Shown here in pieces: positions 31,787 to 64,000 of a stretch of DNA of 64,000 nt. Source of the stretch: an uncultured Planctomycetales bacterium (GTDB lineage Bacteria > Omnitrophota > Gorgyraeia > Gygaellales > Profunditerraquicolaceae). Each line of letters begins with the position of its first letter. The stretch's first letter is position 1. The position numbers were made by a program, and so were the translations under genes. A model generated the notes under the pieces. It was not told where the DNA came from. It saw only the letters and a list, made by a program, of their open reading frames with translations, and did not search any database. The stretch lies in contig CAZIUK010000002.1 of NCBI GenBank assembly GCA_964542785.1, forward strand, positions 49,927-113,926, in the 5' to 3' direction.

Positions 31787-34700
31787 TTATCTCTTACCTA
31801 GAAATACCTCCCTTAATTCTTCAATAGACCTATTTATCTGAAGCACAACGAGTATATCTTTAAGGGTTAATTCAGTCTGCTGGCAATGTTCTTCTTCTTC
31901 CCGTAAAATTCCTGAAATACAGCTTATGACTTTGTCTGCGTCTTCAACTACCTGCCCTTTAATACAAGAGGCTTGTATATACTCTTTAATCCTCTGTGAA
32001 GAAGGGATAATACCGGCATTAACCATACGCTCAATCTCTTGCCACTCTTGATTTAGGTTTATACTTGAGAGGTTATTTAAAGAAGAGTGGCTGATATTAG
32101 CGCTTAGATTACTGATAGCCTGAACAACTACAGGCAGGGCAGTAAAGTCAATACCACCCATATTATTTTGGCCTACGCCTAAAGTAAGACCTTCTTGAGG
32201 CGCTTTAGCTTGCGGTAAGTCGAAAGATCCCTGCTTTATCCTCAATATGTCTTCCATATCTTTAGCTAGATCATGGGTATCTTTGTTTAATCCAGGGTAT
32301 TTTTGAGCTACCCGCCCTGCCATAACCTCATGACTAAGCCCTGCGATTATAGAACGTAAATCATTGTTGTGCTGGAAAAAATACGAATCCCCTATAAATA
32401 CCTTATCTCCTAATCTTACAGGACCGTTAATCTTATCCAGAAATCTTGTAACCATAAATGCCTCTGGTACAACTATTATCTCATTTAAGTCTATCCTTCC
32501 AAATCCAAATTTTTGCTCAAGGGTAGAAATTATATCTTTAGGTATAACAATACGCCTTGCTCCAATTAAGGCTGCTATTTCAGCAATAGCTTCTACATCC
32601 TCTTTGGCAACCCGACCATTTAAGGTATAATCTTCTTTAAGGGTACTCCTTGGCCTTGGCCTATCTATATCAAACATGACGAACTTACCATCCTCTATAC
32701 TGTTATGCGTATCTTTCCCAAAAATGCGAGTAAAATAATCCCAGCTCTTTTCATGTAAAGGCTTCAAAGATACACGGAGCCCTTCCTTATAGATATCCAT
32801 AAGAGATATTGTTTCCTTATTGCCAAAATTAAAAGAAGGCCCCAAATATCCAGGCAAAGCAATACCACTACACCCCAACCCTATAGCTAAGTCATACAAT
32901 ACCTTAAATAGGCTCATCAAGAGCTCTTCTCCATCCAAAGAAGGAGAATTAATAGTATCTATAGTAAGGACCTTGTCGCCTGCATAGTCCTTGGCAACCA
33001 TAAGGCCTATATAGCCTTTTAAAGCTTTTCCTTTGTAGACAAAGAAATACTTAGTATCTTCATGCATAGCCCTTGTATAAGGATTTCCTTTATCATCAGT
33101 ATCAAAAGAACAATCTATAATACCTGCCCTGCCGCGAAATACGCCTAAAAACCCCTGCTCAATTAGGCGGTAAGACTCAACCCCTTCTTGCTTGATTACC
33201 CTTACTTTAGATATTTCTTTATATACTTTAGAGGTTAGGCTTTGAAAAACCCCTGCTAACCCTTTGATACTTTCCATATTTAAGCTTAGGGAATTAGGCA
33301 GATGGTGCTTGTAATCCTCATAGAAATTCTTAAAGGCAGTTACCATAACCTCCTGGTCATGTGAGAACATCTGTGCCAACAACCCTTCTTCAAGCATGAT
33401 ATCGCTTATAATCAGGTCGCGCATCAGAAAAAGGCATCTTCTGCCTATATCTTGCTCTCCTAACCTATCCTTTACCAAAGAGAAAATTATCTTATAAAAC
33501 TTTCTTCTATTAGATAGAAGCTCTTGTTTAATAACTTCTTCCTGTGGATATTCAACCCTGAAACGCTCTCCTTCTTTTATCAAACCTTTATCTATCGCTT
33601 CTTGTCGCTTAAGAAGATAATAAAGGTTCTGAATATTAAAAACCTTACTCTGTGGAAAATCCTCATTTATCCAAGATAAACTATCTATCCTCTGACGTAT
33701 CCTTATTAATTCATCTAAATTCTGGTTAAATACGTTTAAATCAATACTAGATGTATCTATTATGCGCACTCCCTGGCTATTCAACTCTATAATTATTGGC
33801 TTAGCTGCCTTGGTAAAAAGGTTTTTAAAGTATCCAGGGTACTCTTTATCAAATTGAATAAGTTTATTTATCCTCTCTTTAAACTCTTCATAGGTTACAT
33901 CTATACCATTGATCTCTAAACCTAAATAAGCAAGCCATACTTCTTCTTCATTATTATAATCAAATCCAGAATTAATCATGTTCTCTGCCTTAAGCTTAAG
34001 CTTTAAGATAAAAGCCCTGGAGTCAGAAGCAGAAAAATAATCCTTAACCAACTCTTCACGAAAAGGCAGGTTATTCTCTTGCCATAGTTTGTATTTTTCG
34101 CAATCTTTGCTTAAGACCCCTCCTTTTTCTATTAGCTTAGCGTAAAGTGGGGCTAAAGCCTCTACAGCTACTTGGCAGACATAGAAATCCTCATCTTTAA
34201 GCCTATCCTCTAATAAAGATAAGGAAACTTTCTCTCCTCTTTCTATTAACTTAGCGTAAAGTGGAGCTAAAGCCTCTATTGCTGTTTGACGGACACGAGG
34301 ATCCTGATCTTTGAGTTTATCCTCTAATAAAGATAAAGTCATCTCTCCTTTTTCTATTAGCTTAGTGTAAAGTGGAGCTAAAGACTTAATTACTGTTTGG
34401 CGGGCATAGGAATCAAAAACTTTGAGTTTATCCTCCAATGAAGATAAAGAGACTTTTTCTCCTCTTTCTATTAGCTTAGCGTAGAGGAAAGCTAAAGATT
34501 TTATTGCTGTTTGGCGAACACGAGGATCCGGATCTTTGAGTTTATCCTCTAATAAAGATAAAGAGATTTTTTCTCCTTTTTCTATTAATTTAGCGTAGAG
34601 GAGAGCTAAAGATTTTATTGCTGTTTGGCGGATATGGAAATATTGATCTTTAAGCTTGCCCTCTAATAAAAGAATATTAAATATTATCTGTTGTGATGTT

Positions 34701-36232
34701 GCTTCGACAAAAGACAACTTAACCACTTTCTCTCTTTCTATAGCTCCACGCTCTGACCCAACTCCTAACGCTCCTTCTGCTTGCCGGCTTAAAGCCTCAG
34801 TTATTTCTTGTATTACTAATTCCCGGTCATTTTCATTTCCTTTAAGTATACAGGCTATGGCTTGCTCGCTAGGCTTATCGTAATAACCAAAACCCTTGCC
34901 CGGATTAAATATACCAAAAAGGCTAGCCCTTGTTAAAAATTCCTGCTGGCCTAAGACTTCTATCTTAACTTCATACTTTTCTTCTAATTCTTCTAAGGAT
35001 AGCTTTAAATCTCTTTCAGAAATATTACTTACCGCTTTATCCTCCATTATACGGACTATATCATCTCTTAACCCAGGCTGGATATACACCTCTTCATTAA
35101 AGGCTAATTGAGGGAGTTGACCTTGCGCAGGCATACAAATACTCTTCCCTCCCCCAAGGGTAGTTATCTCTACGCCAATCTGCTGAGAAACAAGACTGCC
35201 AACCTGGATCCCTCCCGAGAAGTAACTTCTGACTACCTGTCTAAAGGGGGTGGATACAAGAGTAGTAAAACTATATTCTCCGTCTTTGAATGATTTCTGA
35301 TATGCCTTAAAATAGGTATCTTTGGAGTAGGATTCTTTTAAAGCAAGGTTAGTTAAATCCTTACAGTCAATTATAAAAGAATAAGGGTTAGCCCTCTTGT
35401 TTTTATTACGGGCCTTAAACCACTGGGCTAAAATTAAGGAATAATAGACCTGCCTCAAGGGAGCGTATTTCTTAGCTGTATTTATATCCTTGGTAAGTTT
35501 AGGAATGATTAACTCCCTTATTAGCTGGCTTGAGTACTCATTAAGCTTCTTTAGGCGTTCGTCTTTGAAGTCATAAAGGACATTATCCTTTAGATGATCC
35601 TGCTCAAGCATCACCTTTAAGGTTGCCTTGTAGATGTAGGCAGAATTAGAGGTCTCTCTTATGATAATCTCATCAGGGACTATCCAAGGTCTAGTTAAGG
35701 TAGGAATAGTTATATCTTGAGAACCAAAGAGCTCCTCGGCTTTTTGGTAAAGCTTGTCCCAATACTTCTTACCTTCGGGATTTACAGGGGAGGTAAAACA
35801 AGCAGCATCTTTCTTAAGCTCTAAGTCTGCCTCAAGGAAAATTCTTCCTACATCGGTCTGGGCAAGAAGAGGATTTATAATATTATCAGGCGAGTCAGGA
35901 CGTAAGTTTACCCAGAAGAAGTCATCTGGTAAGGTCAAGCCAATAAAAAAGTATTTAAGCAGATTTTTTGAGGTATTCTCAAGGCCAACCCTTGAGGGAT
36001 TCTTTATAGCGCCCTTATCAATTAAAAGCCTAAAATTATCTTCTTTTGGGTTGTATTCTAAGTAGCGCAGATGCAAAGGCCTAAACCTATCTACGATTAA
36101 GGCATTACGCATTACACTCAGATGATTTGCAATGTCAAGCTGGGCGGCTACTTGAGGGAAACCTGAGTACTGAAGGAAAAGGATAAAGATAATAATAAAA
36201 CAGACTAATTTAAATGGTTTGTTTATTCTCAT
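31787..36232 (-). CDS. giant (~1480 aa) secreted/membrane-anchored protein with central HEAT/PBS-lyase-like repeats, function unknown
   Basis: The start is set at the ATG at 36232 (MRINKPFKLVCFIIIFILFLQY..., hydrophobic signal/anchor); the track start at 36310 is TTG. The central region has five 37-38-aa repeats, (D)P(D)PRVRQTAIKSLAxLYAKLIExGEKVSLSLLEDKLK. No recognisable catalytic motif was found. Confidence 0.5.
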   Translation of the reverse strand: MRINKPFKLVCFIIIFILFLQYSGFPQVAAQLDIANHLSVMRNALIVDRFRPLHLRYLEYNPKEDNFRLLIDKGAIKNPSRVGLENTSKNLLKYFFIGLTLPDDFFWVNLRPDSPDNIINPLLAQTDVGRIFLEADLELKKDAACFTSPVNPEGKKYWDKLYQKAEELFGSQDITIPTLTRPWIVPDEIIIRETSNSAYIYKATLKVMLEQDHLKDNVLYDFKDERLKKLNEYSSQLIRELIIPKLTKDINTAKKYAPLRQVYYSLILAQWFKARNKNKRANPYSFIIDCKDLTNLALKESYSKDTYFKAYQKSFKDGEYSFTTLVSTPFRQVVRSYFSGGIQVGSLVSQQIGVEITTLGGGKSICMPAQGQLPQLAFNEEVYIQPGLRDDIVRIMEDKAVSNISERDLKLSLEELEEKYEVKIEVLGQQEFLTRASLFGIFNPGKGFGYYDKPSEQAIACILKGNENDRELVIQEITEALSRQAEGALGVGSERGAIEREKVVKLSFVEATSQQIIFNILLLEGKLKDQYFHIRQTAIKSLALLYAKLIEKGEKISLSLLEDKLKDPDPRVRQTAIKSLAFLYAKLIERGEKVSLSSLEDKLKVFDSYARQTVIKSLAPLYTKLIEKGEMTLSLLEDKLKDQDPRVRQTAIEALAPLYAKLIERGEKVSLSLLEDRLKDEDFYVCQVAVEALAPLYAKLIEKGGVLSKDCEKYKLWQENNLPFREELVKDYFSASDSRAFILKLKLKAENMINSGFDYNNEEEVWLAYLGLEINGIDVTYEEFKERINKLIQFDKEYPGYFKNLFTKAAKPIIIELNSQGVRIIDTSSIDLNVFNQNLDELIRIRQRIDSLSWINEDFPQSKVFNIQNLYYLLKRQEAIDKGLIKEGERFRVEYPQEEVIKQELLSNRRKFYKIIFSLVKDRLGEQDIGRRCLFLMRDLIISDIMLEEGLLAQMFSHDQEVMVTAFKNFYEDYKHHLPNSLSLNMESIKGLAGVFQSLTSKVYKEISKVRVIKQEGVESYRLIEQGFLGVFRGRAGIIDCSFDTDDKGNPYTRAMHEDTKYFFVYKGKALKGYIGLMVAKDYAGDKVLTIDTINSPSLDGEELLMSLFKVLYDLAIGLGCSGIALPGYLGPSFNFGNKETISLMDIYKEGLRVSLKPLHEKSWDYFTRIFGKDTHNSIEDGKFVMFDIDRPRPRSTLKEDYTLNGRVAKEDVEAIAEIAALIGARRIVIPKDIISTLEQKFGFGRIDLNEIIVVPEAFMVTRFLDKINGPVRLGDKVFIGDSYFFQHNNDLRSIIAGLSHEVMAGRVAQKYPGLNKDTHDLAKDMEDILRIKQGSFDLPQAKAPQEGLTLGVGQNNMGGIDFTALPVVVQAISNLSANISHSSLNNLSSINLNQEWQEIERMVNAGIIPSSQRIKEYIQASCIKGQVVEDADKVISCISGILREEEEHCQQTELTLKDILVVLQINRSIEELREVFLGKR
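34120..34650. repeat. five tandem copies of a ~114-nt near-identical repeat inside the giant gene
   Basis: Plus-strand units begin roughly at 34124, 34238, 34349, 34463 and 34577 (TCTATTAGCTTAGCGTAAAGTGGAGCTAAAG...TTTATCCTCTAATAAAGATAAAG). They encode the HEAT-like protein repeats. Confidence 0.8.
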
Positions 36233-36370
36233 TACAAGCTTAATTTTAGGTAACTTTAAATTTAACCGGCTACTTAAGATAAAGTTTACAACATAGACAA
36301 GTAAAAACAAGGGTAATTCGGGAATACTTTGAAAAGGGTTTCTTTAGCATTCTTCTTGCTGAATATACGA

Positions 36371-37406: not shown

Positions 37407-38918
37407 TTAAAAACGGAGCTTTTCTTTATCTATCTTTCCTGCGCGGTTTTTAGGAAGGCTATCCTTAAAGACAAAATAATGCGGAATCTTAAAATTAGCT
37501 AAGCGCTCTCTTAAATAGTAACGCAAATCCTTTTCATCTAAGCTCTTGCCTTCTTTTAAGACTACAAAGGCCTTTGGAACCTCTCCTCTTAAATCATCTC
37601 TAGCGCCTACTACTGCTGCCTCGGCTATATCTTCATGTTTTTGTATTGCTGCTTCTACCTCCGGCTCAAAAACTATCTCTCCGCCTACTTTGATCATCTC
37701 TTTTTTTCTACCTACTATATAAAGGTTCCCATCCTCATCAAGCCTACCTAAATCTCCGGTATAAAACCACCCATTGCTCTTTGACTCTTTAGTAAGGATA
37801 GGGTCTTTATAGTAACCACTAGTTACAACCCAACTCTTAACTACTATCTCACCTATCTTTCCGGTTTGGACCACCCTTCCTTCATCATCAAATATTTTTA
37901 TCTCTATCCACGGAGCAGGCCTACCTACACTCTCTATCTTTCCTGACCCCATCGGTAAAACAGCAGTAGGGGCATTGGTCTCAGTCATCCCCCAACCATT
38001 TAAAAGATGCGCATTAGGGCAAAACTTATGGAACCTACGCAAGGCATCAGGAGAACTGGATGCGCCAAAAGTAACTATCCAACGTAAAGATGAAAGATCA
38101 AATGTCTCAAATTCTTTTAACTGTAAAAACGCATAATACATTGAAGGGACTATCCAAAAAAAACTAACCTTATATTTTATAATATTCCTTAAAAACTCAA
38201 GCGGGATAAAGCGCTCCATCAGTATAAGCCTTAAAGAAAAACAAATAGTATTCTGGATATAGATAAGCCCTCCTAAGTGAGAAAAAGGCAAAGCAGAGAG
38301 TGTTGTATCTTTATCGCTTAAATCACTATTTACAAAAAACTCCATTGACTTAGGAGGCGCTAAAAGTTGTTTATAGCTTATCAATACCCCTTTAGGCTTT
38401 CCGGTAGTACCTGAAGTATAAAAGATTATCGCCGGTTCATCTTCAGCTATATTAACATTAAGCGCATTGACATTACTATCTTCAATACAATCATTAAAAA
38501 ACCTACAGCCTTCTAATCTATCCTGGCAAGTAATAAAAACCTTTAAAAACGGTGTCTTTTCTTTTAAAGTGGCTATACGAAGATTGGCTTTAGGCTTAAA
38601 GATAAAAACCTTTGCCTCGCAATGCCTAAGGCAGGATAATAACTCATCCGTAGTAAGCATAAAATCTAATGGCACAGCTATGGCTCCCAATACCCATACT
38701 GCAAGATAACTATATATATACTCAGGCCAATTAGGCAGATACAAAGCAACCCTGTCACCTTTCTTAACTCCTTGATTTTTAAGGCTATTGGCTAAGCGTA
38801 TAGACCTCTCCTGTAACTTATCCCAAGATATCGCCTCTTCTCTAAAGATAACCGCATCCTTTTCAGGGTGCAATCTTGCTTTCTCTTCTAATATTTTGAT
38901 TAACCCCATCTTAACCAA
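37407..38918 (-). CDS. AMP-dependent synthetase/ligase (acyl-CoA or acyl-ACP synthetase-like adenylating enzyme)
   Basis: IFYTSGTTGKPKGV (AMP-binding motif I), YGMTET-like GWGMTET and the GRKKEMIKVGGE C-terminal block are present. Confidence 0.75.
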   Translation of the reverse strand: MVKMGLIKILEEKARLHPEKDAVIFREEAISWDKLQERSIRLANSLKNQGVKKGDRVALYLPNWPEYIYSYLAVWVLGAIAVPLDFMLTTDELLSCLRHCEAKVFIFKPKANLRIATLKEKTPFLKVFITCQDRLEGCRFFNDCIEDSNVNALNVNIAEDEPAIIFYTSGTTGKPKGVLISYKQLLAPPKSMEFFVNSDLSDKDTTLSALPFSHLGGLIYIQNTICFSLRLILMERFIPLEFLRNIIKYKVSFFWIVPSMYYAFLQLKEFETFDLSSLRWIVTFGASSSPDALRRFHKFCPNAHLLNGWGMTETNAPTAVLPMGSGKIESVGRPAPWIEIKIFDDEGRVVQTGKIGEIVVKSWVVTSGYYKDPILTKESKSNGWFYTGDLGRLDEDGNLYIVGRKKEMIKVGGEIVFEPEVEAAIQKHEDIAEAAVVGARDDLRGEVPKAFVVLKEGKSLDEKDLRYYLRERLANFKIPHYFVFKDSLPKNRAGKIDKEKLRF

Positions 38919-42213: not shown

Positions 42214-43698
42214 TTAAAATCCGTACCAGTAACTTACCAATGGTTTAGATTCAAGGGAGGTATCTTTTATTATATTCTTCATACGCGTATATTCCAAGAA
42301 CCCTTCACGGCCAAGCTCCTTGCCAAAACCGCTTTGTTTAAATCCTCCATAAGGAAATTGATTATAAAACATCCCATAAGTATTTATCCATACTATTCCG
42401 GCATTGATTTTTTTAGCTGCCTCTTCAGCAATCTTCATATCACGGGTAAAGATAGCGGAGGCAAGAGCAAAATCAGAGTTATTCGCTAAAGATACTGCTT
42501 CCTCAAAACTACTGAAACGCTCAACCAAAGCCACAGGGCCAAATGCCTCTTCTTTAAATGTGCGCATATTAGGCTTAACCCCTTCTAAAATAGTAGGCTC
42601 AAAAAAATACCCATTTTTTAAAGCCGGATCCTGCGGAATTTTGCCTCCGCATAAAACCTTAGCGCCTTCTATCTTAGCCTTTTCAATATAAGCAATAATT
42701 TTTTTCCGTTGGCTATCGCTGATTAAAGGGCCCATTTGAGTCTCATGATTATCAGCCAAGCCTAATTTTATCGCCTTAGCTTTATCTACGAAACTATTTA
42801 TAAATTTATCATATATAGGATTTTGCACAAAGATACGCGACATCGCCGTACACATCTGTCCTTGATTTAAAAATACAGAGCAAAGCACACTATTAACCGC
42901 TGTATCAATATCAACATCATCAAAAATTAAACTTGCGGATTTCCCACCTAATTCCATTAGCAACTTTTTAATATTGGCAGAAGAGTACCGCAATATCTCT
43001 TTACCGACTTCAAGGCTACCGGTAAAAGAGAGCATATCTATTCTTTTATCAGAAGAAAGTAACTCGCCTATACGCGCCCCCGGGGCATTGATAATATTTA
43101 AAGCTCCTTTTGGCAAACCTGCCTCATGGGCAATACTACCTAACTCAAAGGCGGATAATGGCGTTAAGCTTGAAGGTTTTAGAATAACGGTATTGCCAGA
43201 GGCTAAGGCAGAAGCTAATTTCCAAGAAGCAATCAAAAGCGGATAATTCCAAGGGATAATTAAAACTGTTAATCCTAAAGGCTCACGTAATAAATACCCT
43301 TCAGCCTCTTCTGCCGGTACAATAGCCTCCGAAGATAGATATTTTTCAAAATTATTAGCAATATGCTCAAAGGTTTTGGCAGAAGAAGGGACATCCATAA
43401 AAGTAGTCTCTTTAATAGGCTTACCTGTATTTTCAGTTTCAATAGCTGCCAAATCTCCTGCCTTGTCAAGGATACCCTCGGCAATCCTTAAAAGAAGACT
43501 CTTACGCTCTTTAAAAGACATATTAGGCCAACTACCGCTATCAAAGGCATTACGCCCGCTTTCAATAGCTGATTCTATCTCCTTAGAAGAAGCAATTGAG
43601 GCTAAAGCAATAACCTTCCCAGTTGAAGGATTAAGCACATTCTGCTTCTCCTTAGTCTCTATAAACTCTCCGTTTATATAAAGCGGAATCTCTTTCAT
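42214..43698 (-). CDS. NAD(P)-dependent aldehyde dehydrogenase
   Basis: LMELGGKSASLI (catalytic Glu block) and FLNQGQMCTAMSRIFV (catalytic Cys) are present, as is the Rossmann GxGxxG-like FTGSLEVGKEI. Confidence 0.8.
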   Translation of the reverse strand: MKEIPLYINGEFIETKEKQNVLNPSTGKVIALASIASSKEIESAIESGRNAFDSGSWPNMSFKERKSLLLRIAEGILDKAGDLAAIETENTGKPIKETTFMDVPSSAKTFEHIANNFEKYLSSEAIVPAEEAEGYLLREPLGLTVLIIPWNYPLLIASWKLASALASGNTVILKPSSLTPLSAFELGSIAHEAGLPKGALNIINAPGARIGELLSSDKRIDMLSFTGSLEVGKEILRYSSANIKKLLMELGGKSASLIFDDVDIDTAVNSVLCSVFLNQGQMCTAMSRIFVQNPIYDKFINSFVDKAKAIKLGLADNHETQMGPLISDSQRKKIIAYIEKAKIEGAKVLCGGKIPQDPALKNGYFFEPTILEGVKPNMRTFKEEAFGPVALVERFSSFEEAVSLANNSDFALASAIFTRDMKIAEEAAKKINAGIVWINTYGMFYNQFPYGGFKQSGFGKELGREGFLEYTRMKNIIKDTSLESKPLVSYWYGF

Positions 43699-44696
43699 AT
43701 AATCCTTACTTCCTTAAACAACGCAAAAAGCCGGGTAAAAGGAACATACCACTTTGAAAGCTGGCCTAACTGCCCGGATAACTTCATCTTACCCTGAGTT
43801 ACCGCAACAAAGGAATCAAGCTTCCCTAAGAACACCTGCCTCCATACCTCCGGCACAGCAGAGATTACAAAAGGAGCATCGCTATCAAAATCTAATTTCA
43901 CTATTCTACCTTTTTCAAAATTAAACCTGTAGGCATCCTCTTTCCCATCCATTTTAATCGCAAGTTTTACTGTCAAATCAAGCTCTCTTCCTTTTTGCCC
44001 GATAAACTCATCCTTATTTACTAAATCTACGATTGCCTGAATATGCTCTTTAGAGAACATCGGCAAAGCCACATTTTTATTTAAATCCCTCTTTATCTCC
44101 TTATCTAAATCATCAAACAGGCTCTTCTCAAAAATCCTAGCTACCGCAGCAGTCCTTACTGCCTCTTCCAGCGCTTGAATAAGGCTTAAAGAATCTAAAA
44201 AATTATCTCCTATTGCAACAACCCCATGACTCTTTAAAACTACAAGGTTGCTACTCTTTAACGCCTCAATCACCTCTATCGGCTTGGTAACCGTAGGAGT
44301 CTCCTGCTTAATCACAGGGACATCCCCCAAATAAAACTTTGTCTCAAAAGTTAAGGCTTTTAAACTTGAAGTAACAGCAAAATAACCATTAATCAAAGGA
44401 GGATGACAATGGAGCACCTTAGTTGCTTTTAAATTTTTATAGACTAAGCTATGCAAAGGCAGCTCTGAACTTGGCTTAATATCCCCCTTATATCGATTTG
44501 AATTTAATTCTACCCTTACAATATCCTTATACTTTAAATCCCCCAAGGATACGCCAGAGGCAGTAATTAAAATATACCGCCTATCAAGCTTAGCGCTTAT
44601 ATTCCCGGATTTTGCTACTGCTAAACCTGTTTGATATATCCTTCTTCCTACCTCTATAATTTCTCTCTTTAAGTTTTTCTCTCTGCTAAAAAACAT
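43695..44696 (-). CDS. class II (FucA/Ald2-type) aldolase fused to a C-terminal SCP2 sterol-carrier-like domain
   Basis: In the N-terminal ~190 aa, AKSGNISAK, PSSELPLH (catalytic Glu), VLHCHPP and KSHGVVAIG (Zn His ligands) align with L-fuculose-1-P aldolase. The C-terminal ~140 aa has an SCP2-like pattern (GKEDAYRFNFEKGRI...KMKLSGQLGQL). Confidence 0.6.
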   Translation of the reverse strand: MFFSREKNLKREIIEVGRRIYQTGLAVAKSGNISAKLDRRYILITASGVSLGDLKYKDIVRVELNSNRYKGDIKPSSELPLHSLVYKNLKATKVLHCHPPLINGYFAVTSSLKALTFETKFYLGDVPVIKQETPTVTKPIEVIEALKSSNLVVLKSHGVVAIGDNFLDSLSLIQALEEAVRTAAVARIFEKSLFDDLDKEIKRDLNKNVALPMFSKEHIQAIVDLVNKDEFIGQKGRELDLTVKLAIKMDGKEDAYRFNFEKGRIVKLDFDSDAPFVISAVPEVWRQVFLGKLDSFVAVTQGKMKLSGQLGQLSKWYVPFTRLFALFKEVRII

Positions 44697-44708
44697 CTCT
44701 CTTCCCCT

Positions 44709-45641
44709 TTAAAGACTACCGCTAATTTTAAAGTGTATATGCCTTGTAATAAAGTTATTGGGGGTAATATCAAATGCCGGGTAATAACCCTTAGCTCCTT
44801 TTGGCGCAAGCCTTAAACCCCTATACTCTAACATCTCTTTATCCGGCCTAACCTCTATTTTTATATCACTACCACTCTTTACTCCTGATGGCGGCGGGCA
44901 GATAACATAAAAAGGGATATTAAAATGCTTTGCGGCTACGGCAATCTGGTATGTTCCGATTTTATTAGCAATATCCCCGTTTAAAGCTAAGTGGTCAGCT
45001 CCGACAATAACCTTATCAATCAACCCCTTTTGCATAACGTAAGCTACCATATTATCTGTAATCAAGGTAACGTCAAACCCGCCCCTCTTTAATTCCCAGG
45101 CAGTAAGGCGCGACCCCTGCAAATAAGGCCTGGTCTCTGTAGCAAAAAATCTTAAGGTTTTCCCCTGCTTAAGGGCGAGCTTTGCGATTAAAGGCATAAG
45201 CCCACTTATATTACAATGGGTTAAAATTGCCTCTTTATTCTTTAATAACTTTACTACATCTTCTGCCTGTTTTATACGGCTATATTTTAGCCCTTGAAGA
45301 AACTTGAATATATTTTCTTCTAAAGATTCACTGCGCTTCTGCCAGCCTAAAACCATATCGGTTAAATATTTGAAAGAAAGGGTAGGCCTCGTATTATTAA
45401 TAGCTGCGGCAACCTTAAAAAGGTCTCTTGTACCTTTCTTTTTAAGCAATTGAAGGAATATATACATTACCAAAAGAACCTGCCCTACTGCGCGCGTCTT
45501 CATATTCTTAATCGCCTTGCAAGCCTCTTTGTAATTACGCGCTTTTATATAGGCAAGCCTCTGCGGCAGTTTAGTCTCATCAAGAATATAAATAGTACTA
45601 CCCTTTAATTGAACCGGCCAGAATAAAGGAGAAAACTTCAT
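44709..45641 (-). CDS. mtnA: S-methyl-5-thioribose-1-phosphate (5-deoxyribose-1-P) isomerase, eIF-2B alpha/beta/delta family
   Basis: FATETRPYLQGSRLTAWEL and VIVGADHLALNGDIANKIGTYQIAVAAKHFNIPFYV are MtnA signatures. Confidence 0.8.
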   Translation of the reverse strand: MKFSPLFWPVQLKGSTIYILDETKLPQRLAYIKARNYKEACKAIKNMKTRAVGQVLLVMYIFLQLLKKKGTRDLFKVAAAINNTRPTLSFKYLTDMVLGWQKRSESLEENIFKFLQGLKYSRIKQAEDVVKLLKNKEAILTHCNISGLMPLIAKLALKQGKTLRFFATETRPYLQGSRLTAWELKRGGFDVTLITDNMVAYVMQKGLIDKVIVGADHLALNGDIANKIGTYQIAVAAKHFNIPFYVICPPPSGVKSGSDIKIEVRPDKEMLEYRGLRLAPKGAKGYYPAFDITPNNFITRHIHFKISGSL

Positions 45642-45648
45642 AGTATCT

Positions 45649-46422
45649 CTATTTTTCCTCTAATTTTTTAACTGCAGTTAAAGCAATAGTAAGCAAATTA
45701 GCCTCTGCCATATAATAAGCAGGATTCATAAAGCCCATCTCACCGGTAATAACATTATCGCTTACCGCTAAAATTGAACCGGCCTTAATATTATAAGTTT
45801 GCGCAATCGTAAGCAAAGCCGAAGAGACCATATCTACTGCCCTTGCCCCCTCTTTGCGCTTAGCCTCAACTATATGGCGTGTTTCGCGTAATAACGCATC
45901 CGTTGTCCAAGCTACCCCGCGGTGGATATTTAAATCCATCTCTTTAGCTACATTATATAAAGTATCGGCTATTCTTTTGTCGGATAAAGTCTTAAAACTC
46001 TCTTCAACATAATAAGGAGTGACTCCGTCCCCACGGATAACTTCATCTACAACAAAAAGATCCCCTACCTTAATATCTTCATCCAAAGACCCGGCAGTAC
46101 CAATACGGATAATATTCTCTATCCGGGCATTGCACATAACCTCCGTAGTAATAGAGGTATCCGTTGAGAATCTTCCTCCGTTTATCGCCGTAACCCTAAC
46201 CCCTTGATAATTACCGGTAAACATAGAGTATTCCATAAAGGTAAAATTCTTTATCGGATTTTCTAACTTTTTTAATAGCGTCTCAAGTCTGTCTTTTGGT
46301 CCGGGGACTATCGCATATTTGCCTACATCCTGCGGCCTTAACTGCACCATATCCGTCAAATCCTTGCCTGTTAAATGCACCTCTTTTTGCATACGCATAA
46401 GCCTAATCTCCTTATTATACAA
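45649..46422 (-). CDS. PNP/UDP-family nucleoside phosphorylase (DeoD-like; candidate MTA/5'-deoxyadenosine phosphorylase)
   Basis: IVPGPKDR, IIRIGTAGSL and AVDMVSSAL...LAVSDNVITGE align with hexameric DeoD-type phosphorylases. It is adjacent to mtnA. Confidence 0.65.
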   Translation of the reverse strand: MYNKEIRLMRMQKEVHLTGKDLTDMVQLRPQDVGKYAIVPGPKDRLETLLKKLENPIKNFTFMEYSMFTGNYQGVRVTAINGGRFSTDTSITTEVMCNARIENIIRIGTAGSLDEDIKVGDLFVVDEVIRGDGVTPYYVEESFKTLSDKRIADTLYNVAKEMDLNIHRGVAWTTDALLRETRHIVEAKRKEGARAVDMVSSALLTIAQTYNIKAGSILAVSDNVITGEMGFMNPAYYMAEANLLTIALTAVKKLEEK

Positions 46423-56847: not shown

Positions 56848-57108
56848 TTAAGACTTAGGGAAGCCGTATTTCTTATAATCAAACCCGGTTTGCTCTAGGA
56901 GCCTTACCATTAAGCTATAAAATGGTGAAGGGACCCCGGAGAAAAAAGCAGATACTACATCCTGCTCCTCCACGTAAACAGACTCTCTCTTCCTTGCGCT
57001 CTCTTCAGCTGTCCTAACTACTACCTCTTCGGTAATACGACGGTGAAATAAGGGCATTTTTGAGATAAATAACTGAAACTTCTTCTTTGTGTTTTGGTCC
57101 CAATTCAT
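56848..57108 (-). CDS. small PCP_red-like (ChlB C-terminal-domain-like) protein, tentative
   Basis: MPLFHRRITEEVVVRTAEESARKRESVYVEEQDVVSAFF resembles the P-F-F-V-R...E..AR.RG...I..E.....A.F pattern of the protochlorophyllide-reductase 57-kDa C-terminal domain. The ribosome-binding site is weak. Confidence 0.3.
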   Translation of the reverse strand: MNWDQNTKKKFQLFISKMPLFHRRITEEVVVRTAEESARKRESVYVEEQDVVSAFFSGVPSPFYSLMVRLLEQTGFDYKKYGFPKS

Positions 57109-57124
57109 AATTCAATAACTAAAC

Positions 57125-57190
57125 TTAGTTAACCTAATATAGTAAAATTTTACTATATTAATGACAAGATTATTTTATAGTCATTGATAC
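57125..57190 (-). promoter_or_regulatory. sigma70-like promoter (-35 TTGACA, 17-nt spacer, -10 TAAAAT) followed by a 26-bp perfect palindromic operator
   Basis: Minus-strand reading gives TTGACA at 57190-57185 and TAAAAT at 57167-57162. The palindrome TAATATAGTAAAATTTTACTATATTA (57125-57150) lies between the -10 and the first start codon at 57108. Confidence 0.4.
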
Positions 57191-57305
57191 TGTCTGTCAA
57201 GGAATTTTGGGATTCTTAAAACTTAAAGAGAGGTAAATCCTATAACCAAAACTTTTCCAAGAAAACAGATATATTTAAGTAGGTAACCTATTAATGGTTT
57301 GATCT

Positions 57306-57596
57306 TTAAGCTACCTCTTCTAGAGGCAAGACAAAGGCCTTTATCCCTTCATGACTACTCTTACCCTTTAATTCCTTTATCTTAACAAGCATCTCTTTTA
57401 ATTGGCTATCCTGACAGGCTATATAAAGAATATTATTTAGCCCCGGCCAAATATCCGTTCCAAGATGCGTTCCGCTTGTCTCTCCGCAGCCAAAGACTCC
57501 AGAGGTCTTAGTGTAACCTTTTACCTTTGCTTCATCTAGTATCTCCATTACTTCGTCATCCAAAACTTCATTATATACGACCATCAGCATTTTCAT
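57306..57596 (-). CDS. PII-like (GlnB-fold) small protein coupled to the RND pump
   Basis: It is 96 aa. The predicted beta-alpha-beta-beta-alpha-beta pattern and the GxxG loop (GVFGCGETSG) resemble PII-like proteins. It overlaps the RND stop by 4 nt. Confidence 0.4.
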   Translation of the reverse strand: MKMLMVVYNEVLDDEVMEILDEAKVKGYTKTSGVFGCGETSGTHLGTDIWPGLNNILYIACQDSQLKEMLVKIKELKGKSSHEGIKAFVLPLEEVA

Positions 57597-60500
57597 GATA
57601 CCCCCTCTTTTCTAAACGCCTTTTTACGGTGAAATACCGCATAAAGAGTAGGGACTAGAAGCATAGTAACAAAGGTAGATACCGAAAGCCCGCTTATCAT
57701 AGTAATCCCTAAAGGCTGCCAAGTCTCAGAGCCTGAGCCGCGCGATAAGGCCAAAGGCAGAAGCCCTACTAACGTAGTTATCGTCGTCATAAGCACAGGC
57801 CTTAACCTATCCTTTCCTGCGGAAGTTACTGCCTCATACATAGAAAAACCTCGGGCGCGCAATATATTTATATAACTTATCAAGACAATCGCATTATTCA
57901 CAACTATACCCATAAGCATGACTATGCCTAAAAAGGTATTAATACTTAAATATGTCCGAGTAAGAACAAACCCGAGTATTACCCCTACAAAGGTAAATGG
58001 TATAGAAAACATTACAATAAAAGGGTCAAGCAAAGACTCAAACTGCCCAGCCATAACCATATAGACTAAGACTATGCCTAATATAAGTAGCAGGGTTAAA
58101 TCCTTAAACGCCTTCTGCTGCTCCTCTACCTCCCCGCCAAAACTAACAATAATATCAGGAGGAATTACGATTTTACTTAATTCTTTTTTTAAATCCTCTA
58201 CAATCTTGCCCGGAGAACGCATATAAGTATTACATTCAACGCTTACTACTCTCTCTCTATTTTGACGCTCTATTGTCTCAGGCCCGCTTGTTTCATAAAT
58301 CTTTGCTACGTTACTTAATCTAACTAACTTTCTAAGGTTGTTTTTTACATTATAAGTAGCTGCCTCCACCCGGGCAAAAGGGACATTCTCTTCAGGCAAA
58401 GGAGGTATAATAAAAAGGTTGTCTAAATCTTCTAATTTTGAGCGTGAGGATTCTTCAAGCCTTACATATATATCATAGGTCTTGCCTTTCTCTCTATACT
58501 TTGTAGCAGTTGCTCCCTGGATATAGGCCTTTAATGTCTCTGAAACTGTATGCATATCAAGCCCAAGGCTAGATGCCTTCTCCCTATCCACATCAATCCT
58601 TAATTCCGGACGATTTGCCTCACGGGATACGCTTACATCAACTGCCCCGGGAATCTTCTCTAAAATTAACCTTATTTTTTCAGCTAAGGCATCCGTCTCT
58701 TCAAAAGAGTACCCTACAATATCTAATTGCACCCTTTTCCCCCCGGTACCGGCAATCATCTTACCTAAAGGGCTTCCTGTGGTTATGTCCGTCTTTAGAA
58801 CTCCAGGAATAACCTTAATTTTTTCCCTGACTATCTGGCCAATCTCTTTAGAAGAGCGCTTCCTCTCTTCCTTTGGTATCAACCTAGCGCCCGCAGAGAT
58901 AATATGTGTCCCGGAAGCTCCTCCCATAAGCCTTCCTACTCCGGTCATTGTCCCACTTCTAGAATAATAAAATTTTGCTTCTGGGATATCTACTTCTAAT
59001 ATCTCCTCTATCCTCCGAGCTACCTTATCCGTCTCCTCAACCCTAGTCCCTATGGGTAAATACACCGTAAGCCTAATATCCCCGGAATCTTCCTCAGGGA
59101 CAAACTCACTTCCTACCAAGGGCAAAAGCATCAAACTAAAAATAAACGCTCCGATAAATCCTATAAGAATAAGTTTTTTATGGTTTAAGCAAAAACCTAA
59201 AGTCTTGCCGTATAAGTTCTCCCAGTTAACAAACCATTTTTCAGAGACCTGATATAATTTAGACAAAAAACCGGCTTTTCTTTCTTTAATACGCAAGAAT
59301 TTTGAACAGAGCATAGGAGTAAAAGTAAGGGAGGTAAATAAAGAGGCAATTAAAGTTACTGAGACTACCATCGCCAAAACCCCAAACATAATCCCTATTA
59401 CCCCAGGGATAAAGAGCATCGGTAGGAAGACTACTAATGTAGTTAAAGTAGAGGCACCTATCGCTAGAAAAAGCTCTGAGGTCCCAAATATCGCTGCTTC
59501 AGATGGACGATTACCGCGTTCAATCTTACGATAAACATTATCTACAACTACAATAGCATTATCTACAATCATCCCAGTAGCAATAGCCAAGGATGATAAA
59601 CTTATAACATTAATCGTCCCCTTACTTAAAAATAGGTATATAAATGCGGCTAAAAGAGAAAAGGGAAGTGTCAATGCAATTATCAAGCTTGGGGTAAACG
59701 CCCTTAAGAAAAACCAGACGACCAAAATAACTAATACTATGCCTACCCAAACCGAAGATTTAAGAGAATCAAGCGATTCAATAATATTCTGTGAGGTATC
59801 AAATATAATATTTAATTTTACATCGGCAGGGAGAACTTTTTCTACTTCCTTAAGCTTATCTTTAACGCGCCCGGCTACCTCAACTGTATTGGTCCCGGTT
59901 TGCTTTTGAACCATAAGCATAATCCCGCGTTTTTTATTAATACGAACGTATCCTGTCTCTTCCTTAAAGCTATCTTCAACCCTTGCCACATCTTTTAAAT
60001 AAATTAGCCTATTGTTGCGCTTACCGAGAATTAATAAATTAATCTCTTCAGGCTTGGCAAATTCACCGGGGAGTCTAATAAGATAATCTGTTAACCCGGT
60101 CTTTAAATTCCCCACCGGCTGGGTTATGTTTTCATACTTTAGCTTGTTTTTAATATCAAGTATAGAGAAACCATAACTCTCTAAGCGTTGTCTATCTATC
60201 CAGATATTTATCTGCCGCTCCAACCCTCCTCCTTGAATCTGCACTGTCCCTACACCAGGAATCTGCTTTAATACGTCGCCTATTCTCTTATCTACGATAT
60301 CATAAAGGTCAGGGTAACTCTGGTCGGCAGTTACTCCGATATAAATAATGGGGATATTGGCAGTATTAAACTTAAATATCATCGGGTTATCCATCTCTTC
60401 GGGAATATCCGGTAAAAATCTCTTTGCCCTATCTATCCTATCGCGGATATCATTTGAAGCCTCATCAAGATTTGTCCCCCAAATAAACTTTAATCTTATA

Positions 60501-60769
60501 ATAGATGTCCCTTCAGAAGAAGTGGAGGTTATCTTTTCTAATCCCGGGGTTGTCCCGAGTTGATTCTCTAACTCCTCTGTTACCTTTATCTCTACATCCG
60601 CGGGACTTGCCCCAGGATAGCTAGAAACTACACTTATAGAGGGAGGCTCAATTTCAGGCATCATATCAACGCCCAAACGACTTAAAGAATAAACGGCAAG
60701 AATAACCATCGCTAGAAAAATCATTAAGTTCGTAATCGGCTTTTTAACTCCGAATTGCGGCAAACTCAT
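57593..60769 (-). CDS. RND-family efflux transporter permease (AcrB/CzcA superfamily)
   Basis: It is 1058 aa with 12 TM segments and two large periplasmic loops. The AcrB-type N-terminus (KPITNLMIFLAMVILAVYSL) and conserved TM4 acidic/TM10 regions are present. Confidence 0.85.
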   Translation of the reverse strand: MSLPQFGVKKPITNLMIFLAMVILAVYSLSRLGVDMMPEIEPPSISVVSSYPGASPADVEIKVTEELENQLGTTPGLEKITSTSSEGTSIIRLKFIWGTNLDEASNDIRDRIDRAKRFLPDIPEEMDNPMIFKFNTANIPIIYIGVTADQSYPDLYDIVDKRIGDVLKQIPGVGTVQIQGGGLERQINIWIDRQRLESYGFSILDIKNKLKYENITQPVGNLKTGLTDYLIRLPGEFAKPEEINLLILGKRNNRLIYLKDVARVEDSFKEETGYVRINKKRGIMLMVQKQTGTNTVEVAGRVKDKLKEVEKVLPADVKLNIIFDTSQNIIESLDSLKSSVWVGIVLVILVVWFFLRAFTPSLIIALTLPFSLLAAFIYLFLSKGTINVISLSSLAIATGMIVDNAIVVVDNVYRKIERGNRPSEAAIFGTSELFLAIGASTLTTLVVFLPMLFIPGVIGIMFGVLAMVVSVTLIASLFTSLTFTPMLCSKFLRIKERKAGFLSKLYQVSEKWFVNWENLYGKTLGFCLNHKKLILIGFIGAFIFSLMLLPLVGSEFVPEEDSGDIRLTVYLPIGTRVEETDKVARRIEEILEVDIPEAKFYYSRSGTMTGVGRLMGGASGTHIISAGARLIPKEERKRSSKEIGQIVREKIKVIPGVLKTDITTGSPLGKMIAGTGGKRVQLDIVGYSFEETDALAEKIRLILEKIPGAVDVSVSREANRPELRIDVDREKASSLGLDMHTVSETLKAYIQGATATKYREKGKTYDIYVRLEESSRSKLEDLDNLFIIPPLPEENVPFARVEAATYNVKNNLRKLVRLSNVAKIYETSGPETIERQNRERVVSVECNTYMRSPGKIVEDLKKELSKIVIPPDIIVSFGGEVEEQQKAFKDLTLLLILGIVLVYMVMAGQFESLLDPFIVMFSIPFTFVGVILGFVLTRTYLSINTFLGIVMLMGIVVNNAIVLISYINILRARGFSMYEAVTSAGKDRLRPVLMTTITTLVGLLPLALSRGSGSETWQPLGITMISGLSVSTFVTMLLVPTLYAVFHRKKAFRKEGVS

Positions 60770-61644
60770 AACTCTTCTACCTCAACTTCTACTAAAGCTC
60801 CCTCAAAGAGCTTCTGCTGCCCCATAATAACAACTATATCCCCCTTACTAACTCCGCTGTTTACTTCATAATAAAATCCATCCTTTATCCCTAAAGATAC
60901 CTGCCTAAGCTTGGCTTTATTACCCTCAACTACAAAAAGATAAGAGTTAGAATCCCTACCCATTATCGCCTCTTTAATTACCGCCGGAACAGACTGCCTT
61001 TTATCTAAAATAATACTTGCCCGGGCAAACATTCCTGACCTTAATTTTCTATCAGAGTTATCCGCGGTTATCTCTATGGGAGAAGAACGCGTCGCTAAAT
61101 TTATCACTGGGCTAATTTTAGACACTACCCCTAAAAATTCTTCATCCGGCCAAGCATCCACCCTAAAGCGCGCCTCTTGGCCTAAAAACAATTTAGGCAA
61201 ATATTTCTCCGGTATATCTAAAATAATTTTTACCCTACTGTCATTTACTACAAAGGCTACTGGGGTCTGCGCAGTTACATTCTCCCCTATATCTACAAGA
61301 AACCTCCCCACTACCCCATTTAGGGTACTTTCAACAGGAGCCTTCTTAAAATTAAGGCCTACCTCATCCCGGTCTATATAACATAGGTAATCTCCCTTGT
61401 TAACTATACTCCCATCTTCTTTAAGTTTCTCTATAATTTTACCACTTACCTTTGGATAAATATAAGCTTCATCTTCAGCTTTTATATCTCCTGCATATTC
61501 TAATATATAATTTAAATCTTTAAGCTCCACCTTCATAACCTTTACCGGGATAGTATCCTGCTCCTGGCTATTCTTTACCTTTGTCTGACATCCGGAAACA
61601 ATAAATAACGATAAAAATAATACTAAAGAAATTATACGCGCCAT
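60766..61644 (-). CDS. RND periplasmic adaptor (membrane fusion protein), lipoprotein
   Basis: The lipobox IVSGC is followed by a biotinyl-lipoyl-like hairpin (KVSGKIIEKL...YLCYID) and beta-barrel/MP domains. It overlaps the RND start by 4 nt. Confidence 0.75.
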   Translation of the reverse strand: MARIISLVLFLSLFIVSGCQTKVKNSQEQDTIPVKVMKVELKDLNYILEYAGDIKAEDEAYIYPKVSGKIIEKLKEDGSIVNKGDYLCYIDRDEVGLNFKKAPVESTLNGVVGRFLVDIGENVTAQTPVAFVVNDSRVKIILDIPEKYLPKLFLGQEARFRVDAWPDEEFLGVVSKISPVINLATRSSPIEITADNSDRKLRSGMFARASIILDKRQSVPAVIKEAIMGRDSNSYLFVVEGNKAKLRQVSLGIKDGFYYEVNSGVSKGDIVVIMGQQKLFEGALVEVEVEEL

Positions 61645-62924
61645 TACAATCCTCCTGTTGCCTTATCAAATTTCGCTTTAGCTAATATATAGTCGTAAGA
61701 GGCCTGCTTGTAATTAAACATAGCCACAGCATACTTAACCTCCGCGTCGCTCTTATCAAGCAGGCTTAACTGACCTTTATCATATTTTTCAGTAGATACC
61801 TTTAGGTTATCTGTGTACACCTTAATCTCTGTTTGGTTAGATTTAATCTTGGCTATTGCATCTTTAAGGCCAAGATAAGCGTCTTTAAGCTCTAAGATAA
61901 TATCTTTTATAACTTTATCTTTTAATAGCTGTGTTTTTTTCAATTCAAATACCGCCCCTTCTACCTTAGCCTTTGCCTTCCAGCCGTCAAATACCGGCCA
62001 AGAAACATTAACTCCGATAACATTATGATCATTCCAACCTCGGGTATTAGCTAAAGCCGTAGCTGTATGCGAACGGCTATAGTAATCCCATGAGGCATAA
62101 ATATCAGGCCTACCAGATGCCTTGGCTATCTCGATTGCGCTCTTGTCTGCCTGCAACTGGGCAGCATACTGCTTAATCTCAGGCCTTTCTTCAAGCGCCT
62201 TTAGTAAGCCTAAATCTAAGGCAACCTCGGCTTCTTCATAGCCTATATCCCCCAAAGCCGATATGTCAACATCTTGCTCTAAATATAAAAGATTGATCAA
62301 CGATTCTTTGGCTGAAATTACCTGATTTAAGGAAGATACATATACCTCCTCTAAATTACTCAAAGAAGATTGAGCTTGTAATACCGCTGATTCAGAAATC
62401 TCACCGAATTTTTGCCTCTCAAGTTGATATTGAAAATGCTCCTGCCCGTTTTCTAACAATAGTTTATTAAGATTTACAAATTCTTGTGCAAGGATTAAAG
62501 TATAAAAAGTATCCTTTATTTTTAAAGCGGTCTCTATCTTCTCTTTGTCTAATAAGGCCTTGGCAATTTCAAAATTATAGCCGTTAAATTTTATGGTATT
62601 GAATATTCTCCCGCCCGCATAAAGATACTGCCTTAAACTAACCTGAGTATTGGATTGGCTTAAATCTTTGGAATAATAATTTCTCGTGCGCGCCCAGCCT
62701 CCAGATAAAGTAAAAAGAGGAAAAAGGTCTGTATGGCTTTCAGCAATCTTTACCTTAGCTCTCTTTACATCCTCCTCTTTTAACAGTATGCCCCTATTAT
62801 CCCTCAAGCCCACAAGCATAGCCTCTTCCAAAGTAAAAGAAACGCCTTCTGCTAAAGCAAAAAAATAAGGCCAAATAATAAATAAAAAAGCCACTCCCCC
62901 TAATCTTAAATATCCCCTGAACAT
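61644..62924 (-). CDS. TolC-family outer-membrane efflux channel
   Basis: A signal peptide is followed by two-fold internal repeat architecture with long coiled-coil segments; the length is 426 aa. Confidence 0.7.
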   Translation of the reverse strand: MFRGYLRLGGVAFLFIIWPYFFALAEGVSFTLEEAMLVGLRDNRGILLKEEDVKRAKVKIAESHTDLFPLFTLSGGWARTRNYYSKDLSQSNTQVSLRQYLYAGGRIFNTIKFNGYNFEIAKALLDKEKIETALKIKDTFYTLILAQEFVNLNKLLLENGQEHFQYQLERQKFGEISESAVLQAQSSLSNLEEVYVSSLNQVISAKESLINLLYLEQDVDISALGDIGYEEAEVALDLGLLKALEERPEIKQYAAQLQADKSAIEIAKASGRPDIYASWDYYSRSHTATALANTRGWNDHNVIGVNVSWPVFDGWKAKAKVEGAVFELKKTQLLKDKVIKDIILELKDAYLGLKDAIAKIKSNQTEIKVYTDNLKVSTEKYDKGQLSLLDKSDAEVKYAVAMFNYKQASYDYILAKAKFDKATGGL

Positions 62925-63355
62925 AATATATCTCTTATATGCGTAAGAATCCTAAGATAATTCTCCCTATCACTTTTAGAAATTCGCTGAAATATCTTTA
63001 TCGTTAAATTACGTTTTTCTTCTTTTATTCTTCTTAATAAAGAAGAACCCTTAGGAGTAATCAATATTTTTATAATACGCCTGTCTTGTTTATCATAGTC
63101 CCTCAAGACATACCCAGATTTAACCAGCCTATCTACTATGCCCGTAGCAGCAGGCGTAGTTATCTTCATAAAAGTAGCGATATCTTTCATTTTAATTTTA
63201 TCTTTGGAACTTAGAAAATCAAGGATTAAAATCTGGGGGAGAGTTATCTTTCCTTTATAAATCTCATCCGGCTGTAGCCGCGAAAACTCCCTTATAAGCA
63301 TCGGCATAACTTGATTAAGCTTATCGGCAAAATCCGATAAAGAACTAAAAGGCAT
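62906..63355 (-). CDS. MarR-family transcriptional regulator
   Basis: It has a winged helix with TLPQILILDFL...MKDIATFMKITTPAATGIVDRLVKSGYVLRDYDKQDRRI. It is the first gene of the efflux operon. Confidence 0.75.
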   Translation of the reverse strand: MPFSSLSDFADKLNQVMPMLIREFSRLQPDEIYKGKITLPQILILDFLSSKDKIKMKDIATFMKITTPAATGIVDRLVKSGYVLRDYDKQDRRIIKILITPKGSSLLRRIKEEKRNLTIKIFQRISKSDRENYLRILTHIRDILCSGDI

Positions 63356-63457
63356 TATAAATCTCCTTCATAATTAACTTACATAATTATTAACTATGTT
63401 AACAATATACCACAAAATTATCCTCCTGTCAAGTAAAGGTTCTTAAGGAAAAGCAAG

Positions 63458-63970
63458 CTAAAAATCTTTAATTAATTCGGAAAGGAAATTAGACTCTGCC
63501 TCAAGCATTCTAAAATTGTGCTTGATTATCCTGGAAGATGGACTACGGCCTTCTATTCTACCACGGAACATCTTGACCATCCCCGAAGATACCTTATTTA
63601 AAATATGTAGCCTAGCCAGCAGTCTTCTGCGCGCAGAGGCCGGATTTAAATAATCCAAAAAATACAAACTTAAATCCAAGCTAAATTGGGGGCGCTTAAG
63701 CTCTAAAATACTTTTATTTAATAATTCCTCAAATCTCTTTTTACCTTTATAAGTCAAAGCATAAACTATCCTTTTAGGACGATTACCTACTTTACGTATC
63801 TTCTTGCCTATCAATCTTTTTTGTTCCAGGATTCTTAAAGGATAATAAATAGACTTGAGATGAACACCAGCTAAAAGAGAAAGAATCTCTTTAACTTGGA
63901 CTTTTATCTCATATCCATGTTTTGGTCCTTGCCTTAATAAACCTAATAATAAAAGCTCCTGTTCAATCAT
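63458..63970 (-). CDS. PadR-family transcriptional regulator
   Basis: LLLGLLRQGPKHGYEIKVQVKE...IYYPLRILEQKRLI is the PadR winged-helix signature. Confidence 0.7.
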   Translation of the reverse strand: MIEQELLLLGLLRQGPKHGYEIKVQVKEILSLLAGVHLKSIYYPLRILEQKRLIGKKIRKVGNRPKRIVYALTYKGKKRFEELLNKSILELKRPQFSLDLSLYFLDYLNPASARRRLLARLHILNKVSSGMVKMFRGRIEGRSPSSRIIKHNFRMLEAESNFLSELIKDF

Positions 63971-64000
63971 CCGGTAATCCCCATATTACGAAATTTTTTA

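Follow-up and report, generated by a model that had tools for sequence, protein, structure and literature searches.

PadR of Bacillus subtilis, a two-domain protein of about 170-190 aa that acts as a repressor at the promoter of a detoxification gene, has an operator in which a 6-bp spacer separates two 6-bp repeats, CATGTA-AATAGT-TACATG (PMC5728393), and the canonical motif of the PadR family, represented by LmrR, LadR and bcPadR1, is ATGT-N8-10-ACAT (PMC3506622). Regulators of the LmrR/LadR/bcPadR1 type mostly serve efflux or detoxification targets and are often autoregulated. A second point of comparison is FapR with the fap regulon of Bacillus and Staphylococcus, wherein a conserved inverted repeat of about 17 bp lies in or just past the promoters of several fatty-acid-synthesis operons and the repression is relieved by a metabolite of the pathway (PMC5052256).

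The locus reported here lies in a 64-kb stretch of Omnitrophota DNA (64,000 nt, the window in what follows), and it carries a putative operator between a sigma-70 promoter and a biosynthetic array. The 18-bp core of this site, ATAGTAAAATTTTACTAT (57139-57156), consists of a 6-bp half-site, a 6-bp spacer and a 6-bp half-site, ATAGTA-AAATTT-TACTAT, and resembles the operator of the B. subtilis PadR/padC system (PDB 5X11) in its 6-6-6 geometry and in the inner GTA/TAC, whereas the outer bases of the half-site differ (ATAGTA here, CATGTA in B. subtilis). Set against the canonical family motif it reads TAGT-N8-ACTA, likewise two 4-bp inverted cores 8 bp apart, but with the first two bases of each 4-bp core swapped. 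The sequence patterns that mark PadR cores (ATGT/ACAT, or C6-N-T8-G9) are absent, as with TAGT/ACTA only G-T (and A-C) coincide, and this mismatch fits a different specificity within the PadR family and is not evidence of binding. The 18-bp motif was not found in the literature searched.

In the window the core is embedded in a 26-bp palindrome, TAATATAGTAAAATTTTACTATATTA (57135-57160), which is perfectly self-complementary over two 13-nt arms with no spacer, its full extent in this genome. No other perfect palindrome of the window is as long, the runner-up having an arm of 8 nt, and a 13-nt arm was reached in none of 200 first-order Markov resamples of the window. The earlier note on this DNA had proposed a search of the rest of the genome for extra copies; within the window, the search returned the single copy even when up to three mismatches were allowed. 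Upstream of the palindrome, on the minus strand, stands a promoter composed of the -35 hexamer TTGACA (57195-57200), a 17-nt spacer and the -10 hexamer TAAAAT (57172-57177), with 11 of 12 consensus positions matched; 11 nt separate the -10 from the palindrome, and 26 nt separate the palindrome from the ATG of the first gene (57108). The earlier note had this minus-strand promoter right (57200-57195 and 57177-57172), as well as the sequence and the perfect self-complementarity of the palindrome, but it placed the palindrome at 57125-57150, 10 bases off, and 17 nt before the start codon, a wrong distance that fits a 10-nt slip in coordinates.

A terminator scan at the locus found none, and the palindrome as a terminator of the upstream operon was thereby ruled out. 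The search of a plasmid collection with the locus gave no match, and an exact-protein look-up recovered near-identical strains only, which are uninformative because their palindrome is identical. Between the palindrome and the first gene (57109-57134), no Shine-Dalgarno-like sequence precedes the ATG, and many orthologous leaders carry GGAG/GAGG; the same interval contains a small imperfect palindrome, AACTAAGTTTAGTT, common only to the window and its nearest relative, L010.

The conservation of the core was followed in 81 loci, namely the window and 80 species-level Omnitrophota genome loci collected by scanning a genome collection with alignment of the 86-aa protein encoded by the first gene. 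With at most two mismatches, and mostly with none, ATAGTAAAATTTTACTAT is present in 78 of the 81, one copy per locus, and it normally occurs once per about 16 kb. Aligned on the core, the loci yield 1.6-2.0 bits of information at each of its positions vs 0.02-0.3 in the flanks, and an AT pair forming the 2 nt 3' of the core in the direction of transcription (57137-57138 in the window) reaches about 1.3 bits and is kept in 68 of 78 loci. The intergenic DNA around the core is unalignable between loci, and the 86-aa protein is 61-87%, mostly 62-76%, identical to that of the window across the 80 loci. This pattern indicates that the core is maintained by purifying selection on the site, not by recent common descent. 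The invariance of all 18 positions, those of the spacer included, exceeds what is usual for transcription-factor sites, and an additional constraint may act on them. Where the operator varies, the changes are single and scattered and give no usable signal of co-variation between PadR and operator.

Three species, represented by L038, L015 and L035, lack the core and constitute natural operator-loss variants; in L038 (6650-6716) the consensus promoter is kept and the site is degenerate (CTAATAAAATTTTAATAA), both G/C positions being lost. Partial extra copies also occur, either as a ATAgtAAAATTT half-site or as an AAATTT tract that is centred 14 bp upstream of the core and overlaps the -10; L042, L036 and L073 are examples among the many loci that have them at positions -14 to -1 from the core. 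Elsewhere TAAAATTTTACT is repeated 14 nt further downstream, or two complete sites stand 25 nt from each other; extra copies are found as well in L050 (1617/1642), L063 (1735/1760), L132, L139, L154 and L176. The extra copies may be sites for a second dimer or remnants of duplication.

All 78 core-bearing loci have a promoter of the form TTGACA(T)-16/17/18-TAtAAT, with 10-12 of 12 consensus positions, that overlaps the core or lies just upstream of it, and TTGACA or TTGACT stands at the place equivalent to the -35 of the window in each. Counted from the last base of the -10 up to where the core starts, the gap is 12-16 nt in 52 loci, the window included (gap 15), 9 nt in 2 loci, 3-5 nt in 14 and 0-1 nt in 4, and in a further 6 loci it is -10, the core's own TAAAAT being the -10 there. 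In every one of these gap classes, from -10 to +16 nt, the core falls within the footprint of RNA polymerase. Where the gene of the 86-aa protein follows directly, its start codon lies 8 to 294 nt past the core.

Because the core may contain the -10 or lie up to 16 nt past it, a transcript hairpin cannot be the function shared by these loci, and a 5'-UTR stem-loop controlling mRNA stability, translation or processing is improbable as an explanation of the site. In the window itself the predicted start site is upstream of the palindrome, the RNA would fold into a 12-bp hairpin (-12.1 kcal/mol, z = -2.4), and a C-to-T change in two species would retain a G-U pair. However, in 24 of the 78 loci the core is at most 5 nt past the -10 or contains it, so that the left arm or all of the core would be untranscribed; matching changes in both arms, which would compensate each other, were not seen in the cores of variant loci, where most changes break the pairing; the distance to the ATG is as variable as given above; and an Rfam scan gave no match. 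Even less credit is due to the reading that the core is part of the promoter itself, either as a second -10-like TAAAAT or as an initial AT-rich stretch, and has no binding protein of its own. Although TAAAAT is present on both strands of the core and is 16-17 nt from TTGACA in 6 loci, a separate -10 exists in 72 of the 78 with the core at variable offsets, and a promoter role would not demand an invariant symmetric 18-mer with its G/C positions.

A DNA operator at which RNA polymerase is blocked fits all the gap classes, and since the promoter is near-consensus, an activator is not needed. From these sequence comparisons, we propose that the palindrome is very probably a repressor operator. 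The same reading had been put forward in the earlier note, with a dimeric repressor acting at a site that lies past a sigma-70 promoter and ahead of the cluster's first gene, and the comparative data support it, the core being near-invariant in 78 of 81 loci and always accompanied by a 10-12/12 promoter.

Beyond these genomes, a scan with the exact 18-mer returned at least 120 metagenome loci and 5 loci of a viral collection. Among the matches listed, 93 of 125 have a promoter of at least 10/12 within 17 nt of the core, and 85 of the 89 informative promoter-bearing loci precede a cluster gene. Of these 93 listed matches, 60 lead into the gene of the 86-aa protein (s86), 20 into that of an AMP-ligase homologous to window 37407-38918 and 3 into that of a class II aldolase, a homologue of window 43695-44696; a PadR paralogue and ApbA come next in 1 match each and another gene in 4, and in the remaining 4 the flank is too short to tell. 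As the AMP-ligase and the aldolase belong further down the array of the window, the promoter-core module stands at the head of units that are linked in function but differ in arrangement between genomes, and on gene context it looks like a regulon. The other 32 of the 125 listed exact matches are promoter-less, lie in unrelated contexts, mostly on AT-rich contigs, and look like chance. They are what speaks for regarding the palindrome as a whole as an AT-rich palindrome that arose by chance or as a generic repeat, which the earlier note had named as the outcome that would refute its reading; the uniqueness of the palindrome in the window, the resampling, in which its length was never equalled, and the conservation of its orthologous position in 78 species-level loci refute a generic repeat and leave this explanation a negligible probability.

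Several of the matches differ from the rest. On five contigs of about 50% GC (L105, L141, L163, L177 and L187), the promoter ahead of the exact core is weaker (TTGCGC-16-TATACT, gap 7, as in L187 4250-4330), and a CoxM/CoxS/CoxL-like molybdenum hydroxylase operon lies downstream; no PadR homologue was found in the flank examined of this set, which may represent another lineage or another member of the regulon. In L115 (585-1240), the gene of a 175-aa PadR paralogue, 38% identical to the PadR of the window and followed by an MMPL-like transporter, comes right after the promoter, the core and a GGAGG ribosome-binding site, and this unit is likely autoregulated via the same site. Five exact cores in viral-classed contigs of IMG/VR (L210-L214) have no promoter, L211 and L213 having common flanks, and these are probably chance matches or unrelated palindromes.

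The candidate repressor is a PadR-family regulator of 170 aa, probably of subfamily-1, encoded on the minus strand at 63458-63970. Pfam confirmed its PadR identity (PF03551, 45.8 bits vs a cut-off of 27, E = 6.2e-12), as it did that of the MarR (62906-63355), both as given in the earlier note. Its PDB sequence matches include 8jxk, 6jyi and 5x11, and the alignment to 5x11 covers residues 7-163 of the 170. Subfamily-1 proteins have a size of about 19-22 kDa and a separate C-terminal helical dimerisation domain, and the protein of the window may likewise be of the two-domain type of B. subtilis PadR. Y20, Y42 and R66 occupy signature DNA-binding positions and correspond to Tyr20, Tyr42 and Lys67 of B. 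subtilis PadR; these positions are conserved in at least 90% of 55 PadR homologues. The recognition-helix and winged-helix region is 80-90% conserved across the homologues, in keeping with the invariant site. By contrast, the base-contacting His38/Ser39 of B. subtilis PadR are replaced by Leu38/Lys39, which is compatible with a different half-site.

The gene neighbourhood points to the same protein. A PadR homologue is encoded directly upstream of the promoter-core module and on the same strand in 54 of the 80 genome loci, and when the ORFs within 1.5 kb upstream of the module were clustered over 152 pooled loci, PadR was found in 67 and AccA in 62, followed by about 25 loci with RND or PG0541 and 14 with a pseudopilin-like set, and no other regulator family recurred within that distance. 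This linkage, together with the 6-6-6 geometry, backs the inclusion of PadR among the candidates of the earlier note. That note had placed padR at the head of the efflux operon; the gene is instead coupled to accA upstream. The window ends with the 3' end of accA on the minus strand (63968-64000, encoding …KKFRNMGITG*), whose TGA overlaps the ATG of padR in an ATGA, and the orthologous upstream ORF of L016 matches Pfam ACCA with 2.9e-153. Such a start/stop overlap is present in nearly all loci with a PadR homologue, and we read padR as translationally coupled to accA. Both this coupling and the invariant A4T4 spacer set the locus apart from the B. subtilis system. In the 54 genome loci, the 120 nt in front of padR contained no core-like site and hence, the L115 paralogue excepted, there is no sign of autoregulation.

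The other regulator gene of the window belongs to an inserted efflux module on the minus strand (57306-63355), which encodes the MarR, an OEP, an MFP, an RND protein and a PG0541-family protein. Parts of this module occur in 14-20 of the 80 loci, among them the relatives of the window, and always between padR and the promoter; it is an insertion between the two and lies outside the operator system. The PG0541-family member of the module, from a family of transporter-associated proteins (NCBIfam NF045581), is the P-II-like ORF that closes the RND operon (57306-57596), and such an ORF accompanies the efflux module in every locus where the latter occurs. The module has its own promoter, TTGACA-17-TATATT, followed by TTAAT-rich repeats (63356-63457, minus strand), and across loci this promoter takes the form TTGACA-17-(c/t)ATATT, with the TTAAT-rich motif conserved in the padR-marR spacers of 15 loci (L010-L087). 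The repeats, for example GTTAACATAGTTAATAATTATGTAAGTTAAT, are unlike the 18-bp core and are probably the operator of MarR. In comparison with the PadR arrangement, a winged-helix dimer would likewise act here on an operator right after a consensus -10, but on a TTAAT-rich one and in about a quarter of the species. With its own promoter and a different operator, the efflux module places the pump and the cluster under separate control sites, and the palindrome was not found in the efflux promoter. The co-regulation of pump and cluster through the palindrome, suggested in the earlier note, is thus unsupported.

The operator might still be bound by a protein other than the linked PadR, either this MarR or an unlinked global regulator, which we regard as unlikely, though well ahead of the hairpin and promoter explanations. 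PadR is not present in the flank examined of 26 of the 80 genome loci; about 40% of loci have no adjacent padR (the L045 group, with pseudopilin-like genes upstream, is one such case), the linkage being strong though not universal, and in about 40% of the 152 pooled loci PadR is neither adjacent nor parted from the module only by the efflux module. Dimers of the MarR family also bind palindromes of 16-20 bp, and in the window a GTTAAC-containing word follows the palindrome and recurs in the MarR promoter. Against this, MarR is found in 16 of the 80 loci, always together with the efflux module, vs 78 of 81 for the core; the MarR promoter has a different conserved motif; and no further regulator family recurs near the site. 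A MarR box common to the cluster leader and the MarR promoter was considered and rejected, since the GTTAAC-type similarity is limited to the window and its nearest relative L010. MarR as the binder of the palindrome, as the earlier note had it, accordingly finds no backing. Given that the site is an operator, PadR is its probable binder, an assignment based on association, and the combined statement, a repressor operator with the linked PadR as its binder, is favoured by a modest margin over its negation.

The genes under this promoter begin with that of the 86-aa protein (s86, 56848-57108, minus strand), which has weak DUF2621- and PCP_red-like matches and 873 database homologues with a conserved M-x-W start; the homologues carrying a source name are all from Omnitrophota or Omnitrophica. 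The rest of the co-directional array (36371-56844, minus strand) shows synteny across species and has gaps of at most 60 nt, and it is from this spacing only that we infer a single transcription unit. It encodes, in order, an ApbA-like reductase, a TIGR04076 protein, two FabF-like ketosynthases, a BchE-like B12/radical-SAM enzyme and an ACP, then two cyclase-type proteins (cyclase, SRPBCC), an MFS protein, an SDR and an amidohydrolase, then PNP, an IF-2B/MtnA-like protein, a class II aldolase and an ALDH, and finally an acyltransferase, a PurU-like protein, the AMP-ligase and an RlmN-like radical-SAM enzyme. The array is of the type labelled 'ladderane' by genome mining, which has reported such biosynthetic clusters in Omnitrophota (PMC9902471), and as a FAS/PKS-like target it differs from the detoxification gene controlled by B. 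subtilis PadR. Neither the DUF2621/PCP_red-like 86-aa protein nor the 199-aa TIGR04076 protein is an HTH protein, and both were discarded as DNA binders.

Within the array, the PNP, the IF-2B/MtnA-like isomerase, the class II aldolase and the aldehyde dehydrogenase stand in a row (42214-46422), a set that resembles the salvage of 5'-deoxyadenosine or MTA ('DHAP shunt') and would fit the recycling of a radical-SAM by-product. Elsewhere these salvage genes, with the AMP-ligase first, form a separate unit with its own promoter and core. A gene for a HEAT-repeat protein of 1507 aa (31787-36310) lies 60 nt past the array, and the transcription unit may end there, as a gap of 445 nt separates it from the next gene.

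On this basis, we propose the following mechanism. First, a dimeric winged-helix repressor on the operator would cover -10 to +30 of the near-consensus sigma-70 promoter and keep RNA polymerase from starting the biosynthetic array of about 21 kb; with PadR as this repressor, the dimer would sit on the two ATAGTA half-sites and block the binding or the escape of the polymerase. A4T4 tracts are intrinsically bent, and the invariant A4T4 spacer may be read through its DNA shape. Second, a small-molecule ligand in the interdomain pocket typical of subfamily-1, as the family suggests, would release the repressor, the candidates being a thioester or an intermediate or product of the pathway.

The fap regulon offers a parallel in regulatory logic and in the link to malonyl-CoA, made here via the coupling of the regulator gene to accA. 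FapR is however a DeoR-type HTH protein with a hot-dog domain, a family different from that of the candidate here, and no FapR-type protein (DeoR HTH with thioesterase-like domain) is among the annotated genes between 26215 and 63970. Malonyl-CoA sensing at this locus is pure speculation. In its widest form, and as a tentative idea that we hold with low confidence, the accA-coupled PadR and the invariant 18-bp site could make up a phylum-wide lipid-synthesis switch in Omnitrophota, an analogue of FapR with a different fold that would sense malonyl-CoA, an acyl-thioester or a pathway product and govern the 'ladderane-like' ketosynthase/radical-SAM cluster together with the AMP-ligase and the 5'-deoxyadenosine-salvage genes, while the complete invariance of the site, the A4T4 spacer included, would stem from shape read-out or from an overlapping second function.

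The Omnitrophota are uncultured, and to our knowledge nothing is known of their gene regulation. This work provides them with a sharply delimited module of promoter and operator, together with candidates for the regulator and the regulon of the 'ladderane-like' cluster, and the 18-mer is usable for calling operon boundaries in MAGs. The mechanism of a repressor on a promoter is ordinary; what is unusual is the phylum-wide invariance of the site and the link to accA and to a lipid/polyketide-type cluster. A metabolite that releases PadR from the operator would point to the product or an intermediate of the pathway, and the locus would be a case in the PadR family tied to acetyl-CoA carboxylase and lipid-type biosynthesis, not to detoxification.
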